A DNA stretch of 64,000 nucleotides, taken from Escherichia phage vB_EcoM_005. This document shows positions 6,558-49,259 of the stretch, one piece after another (the stretch's first letter is position 1; every line of letters starts with the position of its first letter). Made by a program: the position numbers and the translations under genes. The stretch is taken from the sequence record MK295203, one strand, 5' to 3'. A model generated the notes under the pieces. That model was not told the DNA's origin, searched no databases, and saw only the letters and a program-made list of their open reading frames with translations.

Positions 6558-7139
6558 TCATTCATTTTCATGTTTGTGATAACGTGTTATAGCCGAACGA
6601 GTTGATTCAACACCACAGATAGGGCAAATCATCCTTGGCTGATTAATCTTTTTGCCTTTAGCCGGATGTTCTTTACCAAACATCGGATTACCTTCACCAG
6701 ACATAGCTTTGGCTTGGTCTGGTCGCTTACGTCCTTTTAGAGCTTTAGAATGTTCAGGCCTCTTTTTACCTAACCTACAATCTCTTTGTAGCTGTTTGGC
6801 ATGTTCACTCATTGGAATCCCTTTACGAGACATTCCAAAGAACCCGTCAGGCTGAGCTAATGACATATTTATATAGTTTTTAGATTTAACTACATTATAC
6901 TTTATTTGAAGCTCTTTCTCAGCTATACGAGCTTCTTTATCGGTTTCAAATAAAGATAAAATTCTGGTTTTGAAAAGGTGCGGATTTTCTTTACGTTCTA
7001 GATTCCAAATCTTTTTATATGCTTGGGATAATACAGAACCATTATATCCTTCTTTGAGAATCCTTTCAACGTATGTTGAGCCAATATAACGACGGGGTAG
7101 TTTAGACCCCGTGTATATGGTTAAGTAAGTACAATACAT
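6558..7139 (-). CDS. GIY-YIG homing endonuclease with C-terminal zinc finger
   Basis: TIYTGSKLPRRYIGSTY N-terminal motifs, repeated basic H-x-AK segments, C-terminal CPICG...H; free-standing between genes 20 and 19. Confidence 0.7.
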   Translation of the reverse strand: MYCTYLTIYTGSKLPRRYIGSTYVERILKEGYNGSVLSQAYKKIWNLERKENPHLFKTRILSLFETDKEARIAEKELQIKYNVVKSKNYINMSLAQPDGFFGMSRKGIPMSEHAKQLQRDCRLGKKRPEHSKALKGRKRPDQAKAMSGEGNPMFGKEHPAKGKKINQPRMICPICGVESTRSAITRYHKHENE

Positions 7140-7701: not shown

Positions 7702-8385
7702 TTAGTGTTTCCTATCATATTCTTCAATTAAATGGAATAGCATATCTAAATCTATACTATTTTTAGAATCTTTACTTCGATTCTTTTCCCAAGGAATCAT
7801 TTCTAGATTGCAAATGTGTCCTATTATTTCGGGAGGGACGCCATTTTCAAATCCATATTTGATAGATACCCTATGGTCTAATTGATAAGCTCCTTTAACA
7901 CCACATATCCCGCTTAGATGTCTATTTGGTAGATTATCAACTTCTTCTTTAAAAGTCTTATTAGTAAAAGACCTCACTGAATAATAATATTTATTACGTT
8001 CAGATTTGTTAGGATTCCATCTTCCGTTTTTAGGTCCTGAACAAGCTTCAATCTTTATACCTTTTTTAGACTTAGAAATTTTAGGCCCTTTGGTTTTACG
8101 GATTTTTATGCCTTCATCAGAATTCCAATATTCTTTTCTTGTTTCTGAATAGACTTCCCAACGATGCTCTTTACAGAACTTAGAATTGGTTTCATTAAGT
8201 CGCCCTTTTGTTACAGTATAATAAATGCCACATTTATCACATTTACACGTAACAGCCATTTTTCCAGGACAGTCTTCTAATTTTATTAAATGGGAGCTTC
8301 CACTTTTAACTTGATATCCAAGATTTTTAAAAGCAGAAACATTGCGATTCGTTATAGGTATTTCAAATAGAGTATTAGTAATCAT
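7702..8385 (-). CDS. HNH homing endonuclease (mob-like)
   Basis: C-terminal YQLDHRVSIKYGFENG...HICNLEMIPWEKNRSKD HNH motif, cysteine-rich N-terminus; inserted between genes 19 and 18. Confidence 0.7.
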   Translation of the reverse strand: MITNTLFEIPITNRNVSAFKNLGYQVKSGSSHLIKLEDCPGKMAVTCKCDKCGIYYTVTKGRLNETNSKFCKEHRWEVYSETRKEYWNSDEGIKIRKTKGPKISKSKKGIKIEACSGPKNGRWNPNKSERNKYYYSVRSFTNKTFKEEVDNLPNRHLSGICGVKGAYQLDHRVSIKYGFENGVPPEIIGHICNLEMIPWEKNRSKDSKNSIDLDMLFHLIEEYDRKH

Positions 8386-12745: not shown

Positions 12746-13608
12746 GGGTTTCTCCTTGGTGCTGGAGGCGCTGGCTCGACAGGCACTGGAATATCTTGTG
12801 AATATGTTTGAACGGAACTTCCATCCCATTCTGTTTGTTCTACACCTCTCGGAACCACTTCGCTATCAACCGATTCGAAATTACCTTCAGGAGCGAGTTC
12901 CTTTGAGTTAGCAAAGAAATCAAGATAAATGGTTTTAATTTCGCCTTCCATTTCTTTAACTGGAGGATATAACCACCCGTTAACCTCAAACATCATGGAC
13001 CATTCTAAACGACGACGAGAAGTGGTATCGCCTTCTAATTGTTCGTCCATTGCAATAGACTGGAACACAATACGAATATCACGGTCAAATTTAATCTCGT
13101 TTGTATAGAGTTCAGTGATTGTTGTATTAAAGTGAGGTTGGAAATAAGGCATAATCTGTTCCACAATTTGGAACATATCATCTTGGGTTCTAGTGTAAAT
13201 ACCCAGTTCGAAAATCATTTTAACCGGAGTAGGAGAATATTGGCTAACCCGTTTACGAGGGTCACCATTCTCAAATTGAATTTGTGTTCTGTTCTGAAGA
13301 GCTGTTTTGTATTGTGAGTTATAAAGCATATCAACCATTTGAAGGTTCATACGTGGAAGAACTGTTTCCACTTTAGCCTTTTGTTCAGCTCGTTCTTTAG
13401 GAGACGTATTGGGATTTGGAATATTCTGTACTGCCGTCCATTTGCCCAAATTTGCCATAAATCTTTCTTTAGAAGCATACGTGATAGGAACCTTAATAAA
13501 TTTAAGCCCTGTATCTTCTCTTTGACGTGCTACTTGAACATGGGAAAATAAATCACCCATCAAAACAATATAGCGACGTAGCGAACTATTATAAAAGTGA
13601 CCGAACAT
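12742..13608 (-). CDS. 15: tail sheath stabilizer/terminator protein gp15
   Basis: [13 protein letters not shown]...VPITYASKE... matches T4 gp15 N-terminus as recalled; 288 aa. Confidence 0.85.
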
Positions 13609-14195
13609 TACTCACCTCTCATTTTACAATTATCATTATGCCAACGATTTATAAGATGGTATCCTATCATCTTGTGGCAATGTGGACACTCTACTTTTCT
13701 CTTTGGTACACCTGTTTGGGCTTGTCCAAAGGATACGGTATGTTCTGCTGAAAGCTTTTTGCCTTTGTGGGTTTCACTGGCTCTCTTTTTAGCATACTCT
13801 CCGTGATGTTTACCAAAAAATGGATTCAATTCACCTATACGAGTTTTACCCCAGGCTGATTTAACCCTCTTCATTTCTATACGGGCTTCTTCGTATTTTA
13901 TTTTTAATTCTTCTTCGGATAAATTTAAATTTCTACGTTCAGAACTACTAAACATAATCCAAAAGGCTAAAATCATTTTAGGGTCTTTTGTTTTTGCTAA
14001 GATTGCATGCGCCTCTAGATGGTCTAAAACATCTATAGAAACTATATTTTCCGGCGTGTTTTCGTATTCTGGAAATAAAGACCTAGGGAGAATATGATGT
14101 TTTTCGGTGTATTCTGTTTTAGGTGGCTTGGAGACCACCGCCAGATATTCATCTGTCAAATCCCCAAGCCATAATCCTACTTTTTCTTCTATCAT
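13608..14195 (-). CDS. HNH homing endonuclease
   Basis: HHILPRSLFPEYENTPENIVSIDVLDHLEAH HNH motif and C-terminal CPHCH...C zinc finger; inserted between genes 15 and 14. Confidence 0.7.
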   Translation of the reverse strand: MIEEKVGLWLGDLTDEYLAVVSKPPKTEYTEKHHILPRSLFPEYENTPENIVSIDVLDHLEAHAILAKTKDPKMILAFWIMFSSSERRNLNLSEEELKIKYEEARIEMKRVKSAWGKTRIGELNPFFGKHHGEYAKKRASETHKGKKLSAEHTVSFGQAQTGVPKRKVECPHCHKMIGYHLINRWHNDNCKMRGE

Positions 14196-14204
14196 AGAAG
14201 TTAT

Positions 14205-14908
14205 TTAATCATCTAAAAAAGCATCATCAAATGCTGTAGGAGGAGCATCTTCTCCTCGTCCATTAATTACAACATAAGGATGTACGAATTCAGCCGCTTC
14301 GGCATTAATCTCATTGACCTCTTCGTATTGAATGTCGGAGATATCAGCCAACCCGTCGATATTCTTAACAGGCATTAAATCAAGCTCACTGAATTCAGGA
14401 ATATTAATACCTTCATTTCTCTGTAATTCAGGACGAAGTTCTTCACCATTGTAAATGAACTTGGTAGCGGTAATTCGACGCTGGACGTTAGCACCTACTT
14501 GATAGAATGGGTCGTAAGGTTGTACCCAGTTAATTTCGAATAGGCTTATTATCCATTGGGAAATAAATCAAGTCGCCTGAAACAGGTTCAGTGCCATTGC
14601 ATTGATGTTTAAAAAGGTTAGGGTTAATTGTGATTGTTACTTCATCATTAACCATCATACCGAACTTACTGAAAGCCTATTCGGTCATTGGCATTTAACA
14701 TATTCACGTGGTATATAATAAAGCTCAATACCACGCATTTGAATAGACTCAGCAACTAAAGCATCAGCCAATGTTTGGGTATTCTCATGCTTGTAATGGT
14801 CGCCATTGGGTCATTGACAAAGGGATTGAGAATTTCGGCTTCGTTCGTATTAGCGTAACCTGTATTATTTTCTAGTTTGGCGAAAAGACTAGAATCAAAT
14901 GTCGACAT
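14205..14908 (-). CDS. 14: neck protein gp14 (multiple frameshifts; not translatable as one ORF)
   Basis: gp14-like segments lie in three frames: [23 protein letters not shown]..., [64 protein letters not shown]...; span of 704 nt is not a multiple of 3. Confidence 0.7.
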
Positions 14909-15521
14909 AACTCCACTCCTTCCATTTAGGTTTATCATTCTTTATTCTATTAATAACTGCGCTTTTGACTATACCAAAATACTCGGCGCATTCTTTACCT
15001 GTCGAGAATACCATTTCTCCGACTCTAACTGCTCTGGCCGCAGGATTTTTACTACCGGTAAAATCTGGGTGTTTCACACGCGTCCACATTAATGCGGTAG
15101 ATTCTTTTCTACGCTTTAGCCCTTCTTCAGTCCATTCTCTTGATTTTGCCGCCTCTGACATTCTTTTTCTTGATTCTATAGAACGGGTTTTACCTATATT
15201 AGGGTTATCTTTAGGATTGTAATAAGAAGGACCACCTTGTCCTCCTTTTACCAAATTAACACACTGAGCAAAATCTTCTTTAAGAATATCGACTAAAAGT
15301 TCTTCGGCTTCCTTTAATAATTCCGGATTACCGAAATCTTTCGACCATAATACCTGTTTTATACAGTTTCGTCCATATTTTTTCTTAGCATTCGAAATAT
15401 ACGTTCCTGAGCCAACGTATGAATCCAGCTTTGGATTAGATTTATCCGAATGTCTTTTACCGCCATAAATTTTTAATCCGTCCGACGTTTCAAACTCAGT
15501 CACGTATAATCTATAAAACAT
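14895..15521 (-). CDS. GIY-YIG homing endonuclease inserted between genes 13 and 14
   Basis: [10 protein letters not shown]...YVGSG motifs, C-terminal HTH; 3' end overlaps gene 14 start; ORF track fuses it to an upstream gene-14 fragment (14895..15668). Confidence 0.75.
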
Positions 15522-15568
15522 AATTATCCAATTAAAATAGGTGTTGGTGGGTCGAGTAAATCTAATTC
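15519..15568. repeat. 50-bp direct repeat, copy 1 (copy of gene 13 3' end)
   Basis: Identical 50-mer CATAATTATCCAATTAAAATAGGTGTTGGTGGGTCGAGTAAATCTAATTC also at 15666-15715. Confidence 0.85.
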
Positions 15569-15572
15569 GAAA

Positions 15573-15668
15573 GTTGACGAAAGGGTTCATTATTTCAGTT
15601 TCGTTCGTGTTAGCATAGCCAGTATTATCTTCTAGCTTAGCGAATAAACTCGAATCGAAAGTAGCCAT
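15573..15668 (-). other. duplicated, diverged 5' fragment of gene 14 (32 codons)
   Basis: [32 protein letters not shown], about 78% nt identical to the real gene 14 start at 14908; reads in frame into the HEG. Confidence 0.6.
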
Positions 15669-42695: not shown

Positions 42696-42935
42696 ATGTG
42701 GTATTACGCTCCGATGTCCGATAAGTCTAATGAACCGCTACGCATTACTCGTGCCAGGTTTAAAAAGATTTATGGCTTTGCTTATAAGAAGTCTGATTAC
42801 GGTGTTCGTTTTGAAGATGCCCACTGTATCAATGACCCTTATGCAGAAGAAATTTCTAATGAGATAATTCCTATCATTAAGAATAATTCTGATGATATGT
42901 GGGAATTGCATAACGATTACGTCGCTGAAATTTAA
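42696..42935 (+). CDS. hypothetical protein (79 aa)
   Basis: ATG after GAGGAG. Confidence 0.5.
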   Translation: MWYYAPMSDKSNEPLRITRARFKKIYGFAYKKSDYGVRFEDAHCINDPYAEEISNEIIPIIKNNSDDMWELHNDYVAEI

Positions 42936-42954
42936 GTTTACTGAGGAAAATATT

Positions 42955-43818
42955 ATGATGTTAGTTATTGGTTCTCGTGCACTGCACCACGCTGGTCTGA
43001 TTGAAAGTAAGCATATCGAAAATTCTGATTGGGATTTCATTGCCGACCAAGGTTCATGGAACCATTTTAAAGCTCGGATGTTTGGTGCCCATGTTTCTGT
43101 GGATAATCCTGATGTCCAGGCTTTTAAATGCATGTACAACGGTAAAGAAACCTATTTTGAAGCATATATCGTTCGTGCTCTGACTAACGTACGAGAAATT
43201 ACCGGCGAGCTTCAAGACGAAGATTTCACCTCAAGTTATCGTCTCCTGAAATATGCCGAAAATCATATTAAAAAGGACCGTCTTACAGGTTTCTATTGGG
43301 CTACGCCTGATATCTGTCTGGCTATCAAAACCTCTCATCGTTTCCTGAAGAATAATCCTTTCTTCTTGAAAACTATGTCCCACATCAAATACCTTCGTAA
43401 TAAAGGTACCACCTTGAATGAAGAACTCCAGGAAATTATGCTGCAACGTCAAAAAGAAACGTTGAGCTATTCCCATCCTAAATTGGATGTAAACAAATCA
43501 TCGTTCTTTAATGATACCATGGAGAAGTTCGAGGCTTTGCCTGAAGCTATTAAATTGGCTGGTGTGTATGAAGAAACCTGTGTCCTGGCACTAGAACGTT
43601 CACAGGTTCCTAATGACTTCAATATTTCACCATCATTAAGTTTCTATATGGCTCTTGAGAAAGTGTGTACCTCAATCACTTCAGGTTGGTTCCGCACTTA
43701 TGCATGGGAAAACTACCAAGCTGTGGTTAATATGTACAAGACTTTAGGTGAAAGTGACTACATTGAACGATTTAAACGTAATCAACATCTTATTAAACCT
43801 TTCAAAAAGGCTGAGTAA
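42955..43818 (+). CDS. hypothetical protein (287 aa), possible nucleotidyltransferase-like N-terminus
   Basis: Internal ATGATG start after GAGGAAAA; N-terminal LVIGSRALHH...SDWDF loosely resembles a GS...DxD motif. Confidence 0.5.
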   Translation: MMLVIGSRALHHAGLIESKHIENSDWDFIADQGSWNHFKARMFGAHVSVDNPDVQAFKCMYNGKETYFEAYIVRALTNVREITGELQDEDFTSSYRLLKYAENHIKKDRLTGFYWATPDICLAIKTSHRFLKNNPFFLKTMSHIKYLRNKGTTLNEELQEIMLQRQKETLSYSHPKLDVNKSSFFNDTMEKFEALPEAIKLAGVYEETCVLALERSQVPNDFNISPSLSFYMALEKVCTSITSGWFRTYAWENYQAVVNMYKTLGESDYIERFKRNQHLIKPFKKAE

Positions 43819-44752: not shown

Positions 44753-44766
44753 GTGAGGAAAATATT

Positions 44767-45357
44767 ATGAACGGTCCAAAAACTTTTAATTCTCAAGCTC
44801 GTGCAGTCGGTGGTTTTGCTCAAGATATCAGTAATGATATGATTAAAAATGAGCCTATGTTCTTTAATTGCGATGCTTATTTTGCTCATAAACACGGCGG
44901 TCCTATTACTCGTAGCTTTATTGAAAACCTGCCTGAAGATTGGCAATGTGGCCCTGATATTGTATTTGATTCCCGTGTACACATGTTAATGCCTGGCTGG
45001 TACCCTGCAATTCCAGGCTTCCACCATGATGATGTACCACGTCCGGATATTCCGGTCGGCCAACACTTTATTACCGCAGGGCAGCCTGATTATGATAATC
45101 CTCGTTACCATTCTGAACATATTCTTGGTCTTGTTAACGCTGGAATTGAGTCCAATGAATTAACCAAGTGGGATGCTCCTGACCGCACGTTGCTCCAGTT
45201 TGATTGGCAGACGTGGCATACCGGTTCTCGTGCAGTAAGTAATGGTTGGCGCTGGTTTGGTCGTGTCTCTCGTAATACTGACCGTGTTAAAAAGATTACT
45301 AATGAAATCCGTGTTAATGCTCAAGTTTATCTGGAATTCCCTATGGAGGGCTGGTAA
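44767..45357 (+). CDS. hypothetical protein (196 aa), possible Fe/2OG-oxygenase-like
   Basis: FHHDD...WHTGSR...RWFGRVSR resembles HxD...H...R arrangement; unverified. Confidence 0.5.
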   Translation: MNGPKTFNSQARAVGGFAQDISNDMIKNEPMFFNCDAYFAHKHGGPITRSFIENLPEDWQCGPDIVFDSRVHMLMPGWYPAIPGFHHDDVPRPDIPVGQHFITAGQPDYDNPRYHSEHILGLVNAGIESNELTKWDAPDRTLLQFDWQTWHTGSRAVSNGWRWFGRVSRNTDRVKKITNEIRVNAQVYLEFPMEGW

Positions 45358-45944
45358 TGGCCCTTTATGAACCTGGGTGTATGGGCATTGATGCAAACTT
45401 CATCCGTCGGTCGGAAAATGCTGGAATTATTATCCCAAGTGGTGAGAATATGATTATTAAAAAGTCCTGGCGAAATATCGATGACTGTGATGAAGGAATT
45501 TCAGCCAGTACAATAGATTGGTCAGGTTGTACTGCCGAAATGAAACAGCTTTTAATTGAGGAATATAAAATGGGCTATATTGTAAACGGCTGGCAAGCGG
45601 AACCACATAAAGAACAGACTCCAGACCCATTGATTTGTTATAGCAAAAAATACGGCTTCCGTGCCTGGAGTGATGAATACGACAAATTGGTGAGTTCTAG
45701 ATTCTATGTTTGGATGGGTATATTATTTTTCCCACTCCTAGGGTTTTTCCTGACAACAGATAATGACCTGCCTATTTGTGTATTCGCTTCAGCGATGTCT
45801 GCTGCTATCTTAGGTCTTATCGCATCATTTTTATGGACCTCTGTTATCGAAGTACCTTTTCGTATTTCTAAAGTTAAAAAGGTATATGACGATATCACTA
45901 AGAAAAATACATTAAACTCTTTTATTAAGGAATGCCGTAAATGA
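45357..45944 (+). CDS. membrane protein with C-terminal ...NSFIKECRK (paralog of 40479..40832)
   Basis: Two TM segments in C-terminal half; shared C-terminal motif. Confidence 0.55.
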   Translation: MALYEPGCMGIDANFIRRSENAGIIIPSGENMIIKKSWRNIDDCDEGISASTIDWSGCTAEMKQLLIEEYKMGYIVNGWQAEPHKEQTPDPLICYSKKYGFRAWSDEYDKLVSSRFYVWMGILFFPLLGFFLTTDNDLPICVFASAMSAAILGLIASFLWTSVIEVPFRISKVKKVYDDITKKNTLNSFIKECRK

Positions 45945-46177
45945 GCATTGCAATTTATATTAAATCTGAGTCATGTGATTCTTATCTGTATTCCTATGAT
46001 ACCGGAACATCAGAAGAGAAAATTAAAGAAGACTTAGAAAGCGATATGGATATGTTCTGTCCTATTGGTGACTATATGCTTCAAGTGTCTGATAGTGAAA
46101 GTCCATCATCAGAAAATAGACTTCAAATTATTATGCAAGATATTTTTAAACAATCATGGGAACGAGACGATGAGTAA
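45941..46177 (+). CDS. hypothetical acidic protein (78 aa)
   Basis: ATGA overlap with previous gene. Confidence 0.45.
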   Translation: MSIAIYIKSESCDSYLYSYDTGTSEEKIKEDLESDMDMFCPIGDYMLQVSDSESPSSENRLQIIMQDIFKQSWERDDE

Positions 46178-46619
46178 GAAAGCTAAGGAATTATCGGCAG
46201 GTATTTTGTTCATGACCGTTGATAAAGAACTAGTTATGGGTCGTGTAACAGGCTCTCGTAATCCAGAGAATATGCGTCATAAATGGGACATTCCTAAGGG
46301 TCATGTCGAACCAGGCGAAGAGCCTATTCAAGCGGCAATGCGCGAAACCGAAGAAGAGATTGGATTCACAGCATACGATCCTGCGTTCCTGAAAGACCTA
46401 GGTGAGTTCAAATATTCAAGCAATAAGAATCTACATCTGTTCTTATATACAGTGCCTGTGGAACACGAGCAGTTCAAGGATTGCAAATGTACGGCTTACC
46501 ATACGTTCCCTGATGGTCGTACTATTCCTGAATTCGATGCGTTCGCTTTGATTAAACGTCCGCAATGGGAATATGTCATGGGCCCGTCGATGTTTAAGGT
46601 TTTAGATTCGCTCTTTTGA
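46170..46619 (+). CDS. nudE: Nudix hydrolase NudE
   Basis: Nudix box GHVEPGEEPIQAAMRETEEEIGF; directly upstream of e as in T4. Confidence 0.85.
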   Translation: MSKKAKELSAGILFMTVDKELVMGRVTGSRNPENMRHKWDIPKGHVEPGEEPIQAAMRETEEEIGFTAYDPAFLKDLGEFKYSSNKNLHLFLYTVPVEHEQFKDCKCTAYHTFPDGRTIPEFDAFALIKRPQWEYVMGPSMFKVLDSLF

Positions 46620-46649: not shown

Positions 46650-47081
46650 ATGGATATTTTTGATATGTTACGTCAAGACGAAGGTCTTGATTTAAATCTT
46701 TATAAAGACACTGAAGGTTATTGGACTATTGGTATTGGCCAATTGATTACTAAGAACCCTTCTAAAGATGTTGCTCGTGCTGAACTTGATAAGCTTATGG
46801 GTCGAGTTTGTAATGGTCGTATTACTATGGCTGAAGCTGAACAACTCTTTAACCGATCGGTTGAAAATGCTCGTAGAGCTATTCTGCGTAATCCTAAATT
46901 GAAACCTGTTTATGATGTACTGGACGAAGTTCGTCGTTGTGCTTTAATTAACATGGTCTTCCAAATGGGTGAAGCAGGCGTAGCAGGGTTCACTAACTCT
47001 TTACGTATGCTCCAACAGAAACGTTGGAACGATGCGGCAGTTAACCTGGTTTATCGCAGAGAATGTAATTCCTGCATCTAA
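46650..47081 (+). CDS. e: lysozyme (endolysin) e, C-terminally truncated
   Basis: [33 protein letters not shown]... matches T4 lysozyme to ...AAVNL then diverges and stops (143 aa versus 164). Confidence 0.85.
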
Positions 47082-47512: not shown

Positions 47513-48109
47513 ATGAAAACGTATAAAGAATTTATCACCGAAGCTTCTGTAGGAAAGGTCCAAGGCATTAATAAAGATGAGTGGACTTACCGAGGAAACG
47601 GCGTTGACAAAATAGGAAACGGCTTTGACGCTAAAACAGCTCCTATTGAACGGTATTTAGCTACAAAGGCTTCCGATTTTAAAGCTTTCGCTTGGGAAGG
47701 ACTTCGCTGGCGTAACGACCTAAATATTGAAGCTGATGGGCTTAAATTTGGCCATATCCAAGATGTTGTTGCTAGTAACTTGGATGCAGCTTTTATTAAA
47801 GCCGACGGTGACCTTCGTCGCTGGAATTTAAAACTGTTCTCTAAACAGAAAGGTCCGGTATTTGTACCTAAAGCAGGTAAATGGACTATTGATAATAAAT
47901 TGGCTAAAGCGGTTAACTTCGCTGGTCTTGAATTTGCCAAGCACAAATCAGCATGGAAAGGTCTTGATACAATGGCTTTCCGTAAAGAATTTGCTGATGT
48001 TATGACTAAAGCCGGCTTTAAGGCAGAACTAGATACCTCTAAAGGTACGTTTAAAGACGCTAATATTCAGTACGCTTACGCCGTTGCTAATGCAGCCCGT
48101 GGTAATTAA
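47513..48109 (+). CDS. ipIII: internal protein III
   Basis: MKTYKEFITEASVGKVQGINKDEWTYRGNGVDKIGNGFD... matches T4 IPIII as recalled; 198 aa. Confidence 0.8.
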   Translation: MKTYKEFITEASVGKVQGINKDEWTYRGNGVDKIGNGFDAKTAPIERYLATKASDFKAFAWEGLRWRNDLNIEADGLKFGHIQDVVASNLDAAFIKADGDLRRWNLKLFSKQKGPVFVPKAGKWTIDNKLAKAVNFAGLEFAKHKSAWKGLDTMAFRKEFADVMTKAGFKAELDTSKGTFKDANIQYAYAVANAARGN

Positions 48110-48137
48110 TAAAGCGATTTACCTTTAAAGGAAACAT

Positions 48138-48440
48138 ATGAAAACCTATCAAGAATTTATCACTGAAGCCCGCGTAACCGCAGGTAAATTAGAAGCCGCT
48201 GTAAATAAAAAGGCCCATTCATTTCATGATTTGTCAGATAAAGACCGTAAGAAACTTGTAAGCCTTTATATTGACAAAGAGCGTATTCTCGCTCTCCCGG
48301 GCGCTAATGAAGGTAAACAGGCCAAGCCTTTGAATTCTGTCGAAAAGAAAATTGATAACTTTGCTTCTAAGTTTGGTATGTCTATGGATGACCTTCAGCA
48401 AGCGGCTACCGAAGCAGCTAAAGCAATTAAAGGTAAATAA
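48138..48440 (+). CDS. ipII: internal protein II
   Basis: MKTYQEFITEARVTAGKLEAAVNKKAHSFHDL...; 100 aa; T4 order e-ipIII-ipII-denV. Confidence 0.8.
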   Translation: MKTYQEFITEARVTAGKLEAAVNKKAHSFHDLSDKDRKKLVSLYIDKERILALPGANEGKQAKPLNSVEKKIDNFASKFGMSMDDLQQAATEAAKAIKGK

Positions 48441-48959: not shown

Positions 48960-49259
48960 ATGAAAACTTATCAAGAATTTATTACAGAAGCCAAAGCTCC
49001 TAAAGCATTTCAAATTGGGGTTCAAGGCAATTTAGACCAAGAATATGTTGATGCTATTGTAGCAAGCCTCGGTAAACAGGGTGTACAAGTGGATTTGGTT
49101 GATTTTACCAAAGGTAATACTTTTAATATTGTTACGTCTAAAGGCTCTTTAGCTAAAGTTAAAAAGGCTTTTGGTGTAGCACAAGCCTACGAAATCGACC
49201 ACTCTGAATTAGAAAATAAAGGTCGCCAGAACACAATTAAAGGTTCTGGTTCTTTCTAA
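48960..49259 (+). CDS. internal-protein-like (leader MKTYQEFITEA), 99 aa
   Basis: Same capsid-targeting leader. Confidence 0.65.
   Translation: MKTYQEFITEAKAPKAFQIGVQGNLDQEYVDAIVASLGKQGVQVDLVDFTKGNTFNIVTSKGSLAKVKKAFGVAQAYEIDHSELENKGRQNTIKGSGSF

Follow-up and report, generated by a model that had tools for sequence, protein, structure and literature searches.

phrog_1843, a phage family of predicted Fe(II)/2-oxoglutarate oxygenases, and its shortened member in the deposited genome of Escherichia phage vB_EcoM_005

What kind of protein is encoded by a 196-residue open reading frame (ORF) of Escherichia phage vB_EcoM_005 that the source record names 'tail sheath monomer', and can its recorded length be believed? 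In this article, I will follow this gene through 64,000 nucleotides of sequence record MK295203 (hereafter the window), DNA that is 96-97.5% identical to that of the Dhakavirus phages IME281, MX01 and Bp7 (T4-like Straboviridae), and through the phages that carry its relatives. The protein is 100% identical to one deposited protein of vB_EcoM_005, itself a T4-like Dhakavirus, and the name given to it there is wrong. A sequence-only reading of the window had proposed a possible Fe(II)/2-oxoglutarate (2OG) oxygenase from three motifs, FHHDD, WHTG and RWFGRVSR, and both the ORF and the motifs do lie where that reading had placed them (Table 1). The explanation that I hold to be very probable is a joint one, namely that the protein belongs to an uncharacterised family of Fe(II)/2OG oxygenases, nearest to phytanoyl-CoA hydroxylase (PhyH)-like small-molecule hydroxylases, and that its 196-residue form is an artefact of the record.

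Table 1. Features of the oxygenase gene and its surroundings (window coordinates; residues in the numbering of the recorded protein)
Feature	Position	Strand	Remarks
Conserved gene upstream of the oxygenase	42892-43818	+	Pfam DUF7277 + DUF7275; phrog_2141 (unknown function)
Free-standing HNH homing endonuclease, 216 aa	43818-44468	+	phrog_374, E 1e-61; no Pfam match; two genes upstream of the oxygenase
Shine-Dalgarno-like GAGGA	44755..44759	+	7 nt 5' of the oxygenase ATG; direct sequence reading
Predicted Fe(II)/2OG oxygenase, phrog_1843 member	44767..45357	+	196 aa as recorded; ATG start, TAA stop
FHHDD, residues 85-89	45019..45033	+	H86 and D88 are the conserved HxD pair, proposed Fe ligands
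Junction codon Gly126	45142..45144	+	In place of 34 residues (D126-K159) of IME281/Bp7; at 45143, 1 nt stands where the relatives have 100 nt
WHTG, residues 150-153	45214..45225	+	Contains the conserved distal His, H151, as the third proposed Fe ligand
RWFGRVSR, residues 162-169	45250..45273	+	R162 proposed to bind the 2OG C5 carboxylate; R166 also near-invariant
e.2-like membrane protein	45357..45944	+	phrog_2203; directly downstream of the oxygenase; ATG overlaps the oxygenase stop (TAATG)
NudE Nudix hydrolase	46170..46619	+	
Lysozyme e	46650-47081	+	Ends early, 143 aa (164 aa in IME281)

The window protein matches the PHROG profile phrog_1843 (E 1.1e-73, in two stretches because of the gap discussed below), as does gp132 of phage Nanosmite (9e-77), and ORF132c of RB69 is a further member of what PHROGs lists as a family of unknown function. 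An exhaustive profile search against 1.84 billion representatives (50% clustering) returned 734 at E <= 1e-3, and a large protein collection holds 1568 homologues, nearly all of them 226-231 aa long among the matches listed, with the 196-aa form as a singleton cluster. By tblastn, the family is present in 471 of 50,697 phage records, with Escherichia (199), Aeromonas (63), Mycobacterium (33), Klebsiella (26) and Gordonia (22) as hosts, and its carriers include RB69, Dhakavirus and Mosigvirus. On the bacterial side, one genome for each of 185,579 species yielded just 8 loci, and the two large loci that were annotated are prophage early regions, one with RecT, YqaJ and HerA and the other with DNA methylases and DUF5131; phrog_1843 is therefore essentially a phage family, and these loci provide no host operon to learn from.

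The oxygenase label is not new, since at least two annotators have already given it to family members: UniRef calls the homologue in Aeromonas phage AS-yj a 'Phytanoyl-CoA dioxygenase family protein' and the record of Citrobacter phage Ursula calls its own a '2OG-Fe(II) oxygenase'. Profile libraries are silent on the matter. The window protein has no Pfam match even at E <= 10, and 118 diverse members searched at E <= 0.01 gave no 2OG family, only two stray single-member hits to unrelated families; PhyH (PF05721), 2OG-FeII_Oxy_2 and TET-JBP were matched by neither. NCBIfam and PADLOC hold no match for the family, and searches of PDB sequences (phmmer and profile) returned nothing significant, the best profile match having an E-value of 0.41. 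This match is to the halogenase BesD, and in it the distal His and the Arg of the family align with the His and Arg of the BesD stretch 'HRTIPLREDTTR'.

Structure prediction speaks more clearly. The sequence-only reading was to be dropped if no double-stranded beta-helix was predicted, and the AlphaFold2 model of the full-length member P0002 (pLDDT 89.1, pTM 0.87, from a 41-sequence alignment) does have the eight-strand jelly-roll core of that fold. When the model was compared with the PDB by Foldseek, the top 50 matches were all Fe(II)/2OG oxygenases, among them ColD, proline hydroxylase H11, HalB/HalD, HygX, GriE, WelO5, PHYHD1 and EctD, with a best E-value of 6e-4 and TM-scores of 0.3-0.45, and the structural matches in BFVD include viral entries named 'phytanoyl-CoA dioxygenase' and '2OG-Fe(II) oxygenase'.

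Across the 118 members, which are 32-63% identical to the P0002 reference, conservation is 90% or higher at H85, D87, H183, R194 and R198 (P0002 numbering). In a set that extends to 26% identity, the HxD pair, the distal His and both Arg of RWFGR do not vary at all; the window residues H87 and D89, the second His and second Asp of HHDD, vary in distant members (HLDD, HCDD, HHDY). By sequence and strand position, H85, D87 and H183 (H86, D88 and H151 in the window) make up the HxD/E...H facial triad, and in the P0002 model the HxD ends strand 83-85, the distal His lies in strand 182-185 and R194 (R162 in the window) lies in strand 192-201 as the predicted basic residue of strand VIII. As modelled, this is the canonical 2OG-oxygenase layout, from which I infer the triad geometry, and the motifs that had been picked by eye for their resemblance to an HxD...H...R triad turn out to be the conserved motifs of the family in the 118-member alignment, and they take canonical strand positions in the AlphaFold2 model. 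R162 is 11 residues past the distal His in the window protein. In human PhyH, H264 and R275 are also 11 residues apart, and this is the distance found in the family.

Longer members of the family are either tandem duplications, with an active and a degenerate copy, or carry N-terminal extensions without a Pfam match, and domain fusions were accordingly rejected as a clue to function. The tandem-duplicated forms include the metagenomic proteins P0136, P0166, P0219 and P0269 (387-455 aa), and such forms suggest that the single-domain proteins may act as dimers. They also raise the question of whether the family might have retained the fold as a non-catalytic cupin or double-stranded beta-helix module for binding or regulation. 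The N-terminal copy of the tandem forms retains HxD...H...R and the C-terminal copy lacks the HxD motif, which means that non-catalytic copies do exist in the family; structural similarity to known enzymes is moderate, and no biochemical work on any phrog_1843 member was found in the literature. However, the triad and Arg are conserved family-wide, even at 26% identity, and the fused forms always keep both in one copy, a pattern that fits catalysis as far as sequences can tell and makes a purely structural role very improbable.

Taking the family as putative enzymes, then, their nearest relations are PhyH-like. The comparison covered human phytanoyl-CoA hydroxylase (2a1x), PHYHD1 (3obz), EctD, EasH, ColD, proline hydroxylase H11 and the halogenases HalB, HalD and BesD, with which the modelled family would share a double-stranded beta-helix core with N-terminal extension strands, an HxD closing the second core strand, a distal His on the seventh, an Arg 11 residues later on the eighth, and a helix inserted between strands IV and V. 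Unlike these enzymes, the family is not recognised at sequence level by Pfam PhyH or any of the other 2OG families, is smaller (228 aa versus 245-290 aa), possesses a long conserved loop (residues 86-115, 'VPRPDIPVGQHFITAGQPDYDNPRY') for which no counterpart was identified in PhyH-like enzymes, and occurs almost entirely in phages and prophages. With good confidence at the level of the superfamily, I conclude that it is a distinct clade of Fe(II)/2OG oxygenases nearest the PhyH-like small-molecule enzymes, and one not yet modelled, since neither Pfam nor NCBIfam matches it. T4-like cyanomyoviruses also carry 'phytanoyl-CoA dioxygenase domain' and 2OG-Fe(II) oxygenase genes (PMC3037559), which resemble the family in being accessory genes of this fold in T4-like phages, but the BFVD structural matches between the two are weak (E 8e-3 to 3e-2, TM ~0.3).

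The recorded length of the window protein is another matter. The IME281 and Bp7 homologues are 229 aa long and close relatives span 226-231 aa, and in the window a single Gly replaces D126-K159, leaving a net 33 residues missing, in frame, between the motifs. The spacing of about 70 residues that the sequence-only reading had given from FHHDD to WHTG is thus fair for the 65 residues recorded from His to His, but not for the protein of close relatives, which have 98, and because these 33 residues are missing between the motifs the spacing in the window cannot be trusted. The segment contains the near-invariant P128, T129 and F131 and, in the P0002 model, strand 130-138 and most of helix 147-160, which I take for core strand IV and the IV-V insert. 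When the 196-aa form is modelled, the remainder of the fold is preserved, as it tends to be with AlphaFold, but this strand and helix and the short strand after them are absent, and residues 127-131 fall below a pLDDT of 50.

Is this gap, then, a real in-frame deletion, so that the phage carries an impaired or inactive copy of an accessory gene that it can do without? The gene is indeed dispensable: in the e-to-tRNA region of T4 that was examined, e.2, NudE and e are present and no copy of the oxygenase was found. Furthermore, the family member is split in Aeromonas phage 65 into pieces of 143 aa and 86 aa, a separate PHROG (phrog_23363) exists for C-terminal fragments, the gap preserves the frame and the deposited protein record has it too. 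However, the alignment of the window with IME281 shows the same event, ~1 nt where IME281 has ~100, at no fewer than 20 sites in 64 kb. Thirteen of these junctions lie at 26-63 kb of the window (27472, 31005, 31230, 43521, 45143, 47049, 51928, 54139, 55753, 56613, 59012, 60542 and 62454), where 99-103 nt of IME281 (exactly 100 at seven of them) became 0-3 nt, usually one, and at least seven more lie at 1-26 kb (3004, 16370, 19202, 19466, 21018, 23299 and 23985); the comparison with Bp7 confirms those at 43521 and 45143. They fall in and out of frame, also in structural-gene regions and in lysozyme gene e, where the dropout at 47049 joins e out of frame to the next gene, and natural deletions would not share one size. 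Add to this that the lost segment holds near-invariant residues, a core strand and a helix, and that the model of the shortened form lacks these elements and is poorly predicted at residues 127-131, and a real deletion appears unlikely. At the gap itself, no microhomology fits a simple repeat-mediated deletion.

Most likely, therefore, the gap is an artefact of the deposited sequence (record or assembly) rather than biology, a reading that is based on comparison with relatives, not on reads, and that is drawn because the dropouts have one fixed size, both in and out of frame, across essential genes. The complete vB_EcoM_005 record is 155,101 bp long, compared to ~170 kb in relatives. The real protein of the phage would then match those of IME281 and Bp7, at ~229 aa and a His-to-His distance of 98 residues, and the 196-aa form, short of 33 residues through a systematic 100-nt dropout, would not be what the phage makes. 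Since so many dropouts affect the window, in lysozyme e and in other genes as well, its ORF lengths and frameshifts need to be checked against relatives, and the gene lengths, frames and motif spacings of deposited vB_EcoM_005 are not to be taken at face value.

Turning to the surroundings of the gene, it sits in an early accessory region between tRNA-side genes and lysozyme e, and is followed by the e.2-like membrane protein, a 78-aa ORF, NudE and e, in this order. The overlap of stop and start codons (TAATG) makes it probable that the oxygenase and the e.2-like gene are co-translated. A scan for promoters and terminators gave counts no higher than in shuffled sequence. As an obligatory partner e.2 was rejected, since a Stenotrophomonas phage copy of the oxygenase has no adjoining e.2 and the T4 region has e.2 without the oxygenase. 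In 21 T4-like loci NudE follows the oxygenase at a distance of 370-1000 nt, and the annotation of T4 NudE lists ADP-ribose, NADH, FAD and Ap3A as its substrates. Upstream, the conserved DUF7277/DUF7275 gene, itself shortened by the dropout at 43521, is separated from the oxygenase by a 74-aa ORF and by the HNH gene, an insertion of 665 nt that IME281 and Bp7 lack.

The window has other insertions. Five further stretches of 590-730 nt are inserted relative to IME281 in the structural-gene region (680-1339 on the + strand; 6558-7139, 7702-8385, 13608-14195 and 14895-15668 on the - strand), each with one ORF whose N-terminus resembles that of a GIY-YIG or HNH homing endonuclease, so that candidate mobile endonuclease genes are unusually dense here. 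The set of internal-protein genes also differs from that of IME281, with ~1 kb inserted, and the extra ORFs at 47513-48440 and 48960-49259 (+) start with MKTY(K/Q)EFITEA, the capsid-targeting N-terminus of T4 internal proteins.

Can the genes that accompany the family in other phages tell us what it acts on? Two sets of 80 viral loci, retrieved with two different query alignments, and annotated phage records were used to call ORFs, cluster the neighbours by BLAST (over 78 and then 158 viral loci) and count them per oxygenase lineage. Nearly all neighbour clusters in the 158 loci are lineage-specific, and only three recur in at least four lineages, namely a Nampt/Namat-like phosphoribosyltransferase, an SPFH-like protein and a primase-helicase. 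The phosphoribosyltransferase (Pfam NAPRTase + NAMPT_N) is near the oxygenase at 9 of the 158 loci, in 5 lineages; the two genes overlap by 4 nt in L042, L052 and L081 and lie 0.4-4.6 kb apart in the others. The phosphoribosyltransferase is accompanied by an NMNAT-Nudix gene in L052, L088 and L090 (NARP2-like) and by a PRPS-like gene in L042 and L080 (NARP1-like). In the cultured Pseudoalteromonas phage H101, gp078 belongs to the family (28% identity; phrog_1843, E 2e-54) and comes immediately after genes annotated as 'ribose-phosphate pyrophosphokinase' and 'nicotinamide phosphoribosyl transferase', the Nampt gene lying 77 nt upstream. The H101 genes gp075-gp078 (L101:1769-5453) form one co-directional block of a PRPS-like gene, an HNH endonuclease, a Nampt-like gene and the oxygenase, which by its gene content is a putative NARP1-type operon with an extra oxygenase gene. 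The SPFH/band-7-like protein, a putative assignment made by eye (its PHROG match, phrog_200, is named only 'lipoprotein'), was seen at 17 loci in 4 lineages, often directly upstream of the oxygenase. Among the IMG/VR loci where this predicted membrane protein (~260-300 aa) takes that position, in several lineages, are L172, L173, L125, L126, L115, L119, L120 and L168, and e.2, the co-translated downstream neighbour in the window, is likewise a membrane protein.

The two phage pathways for NAD+ reconstitution consist of Adps and Namat (NARP1) and of Nampt and Nmnat (NARP2), the latter reported in ~1.1% of phage genomes (bioRxiv 10.1101/2024.02.11.579819). Family members directly adjoin such genes in several unrelated phage backgrounds, but neither pathway has been described with this oxygenase as a component: the text of that paper mentions no oxygenase or dioxygenase, and that of a survey of viral NAD+ metabolism contains neither dioxygenase, 2OG nor oxoglutarate (PMC9503650). 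One may picture the phrog_1843 oxygenases as an accessory enzyme of an NAD+-centred counter-defence, co-transferred with NARP1-type genes (PRPS-like + Namat), with NARP2-type genes (Nampt + NMNAT-Nudix) and, in T4-like phages, with NudE, and oxidising a metabolite derived from NAD+ or ADP-ribose, an immune signal, or some modified degradation product that, left in place, would stand in the way of NAD+ rebuilding. This picture is improbable as it stands. Nampt/Namat is absent from most of the oxygenase loci, Nampt was not found in the 64 kb of the window, and the RtcB, SPFH, DNA methylase and RecT neighbours point away from NAD+. NadV-like genes are reported in 22-33% of medium and jumbo phages (PMC9503650), and in the cultured phages YB07, PMBT1 and BrutonGaster, which have Nampt, no family member was found within 5-8 kb of it; since NadV is this common and three Nampt phages have no family member nearby, the NAD+ link is a lead, not a finding.

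Some of the same neighbours bring up nucleic acids, and an AlkB-like or TET/JBP-like oxygenase, which would repair or modify the bases of DNA, RNA or tRNA belonging to the phage or its host, needs to be considered; the sequence-only reading had named nucleic-acid bases first, next to host metabolites, as what a phage oxygenase could act on. The AlkB and TET/JBP dioxygenases include phage enzymes acting on 5mC and T (PMC13229309). An RtcB RNA ligase gene lies 0.4-2.2 kb upstream of the oxygenase in 13 actinophage-type loci, prophage copies have DNA methylases (L008) or RecT/YqaJ/HerA genes (L013) around them, the T4-like copies belong to the e-to-tRNA region, and many Arg residues are conserved. 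However, such neighbours are typical of any early or accessory region, and linkage to a cytosine methylase is unusual in the family, with L008 as the only case seen. The best structural neighbours are all PhyH-type small-molecule or amino-acid oxygenases, AlkB and TET/JBP rank below them, TET/JBP structures are absent from the top 60, and the Pfam families 2OG-FeII_Oxy_2 and TET-JBP are unmatched, as noted above. I thus consider a nucleic-acid substrate doubtful, though less so than either the NAD+ scenario or a non-catalytic role. The recurring neighbours are all accessory, host-takeover or counter-defence genes; they are in keeping with an auxiliary enzyme that works early in infection, and do not by themselves single out a substrate.

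For the preferred reading, a PhyH-like oxygenase, the chemistry can be sketched. H86, D88 and H151 (window numbering) would hold Fe(II), R162 and probably also R166 on the following strand would hold the C5 carboxylate of 2OG, and the reaction of O2 with 2OG would yield succinate and CO2 and leave an Fe(IV)=O species to hydroxylate the substrate. The gene would serve as an early-region accessory gene coupled in translation to the e.2 membrane protein. As to the substrate, a small anionic metabolite of the nucleotide or NAD+/ADP-ribose type is a guess that I offer with low confidence.

What is new here is an uncharacterised clade of a well-known kind of enzyme, a family that is common and very strongly conserved in phages, yet has no Pfam or NCBIfam model. 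The repeated NAD+-salvage neighbourhood gives one concrete hypothesis for this family, and the superfamily assignment, together with the named catalytic residues, makes the family directly testable.
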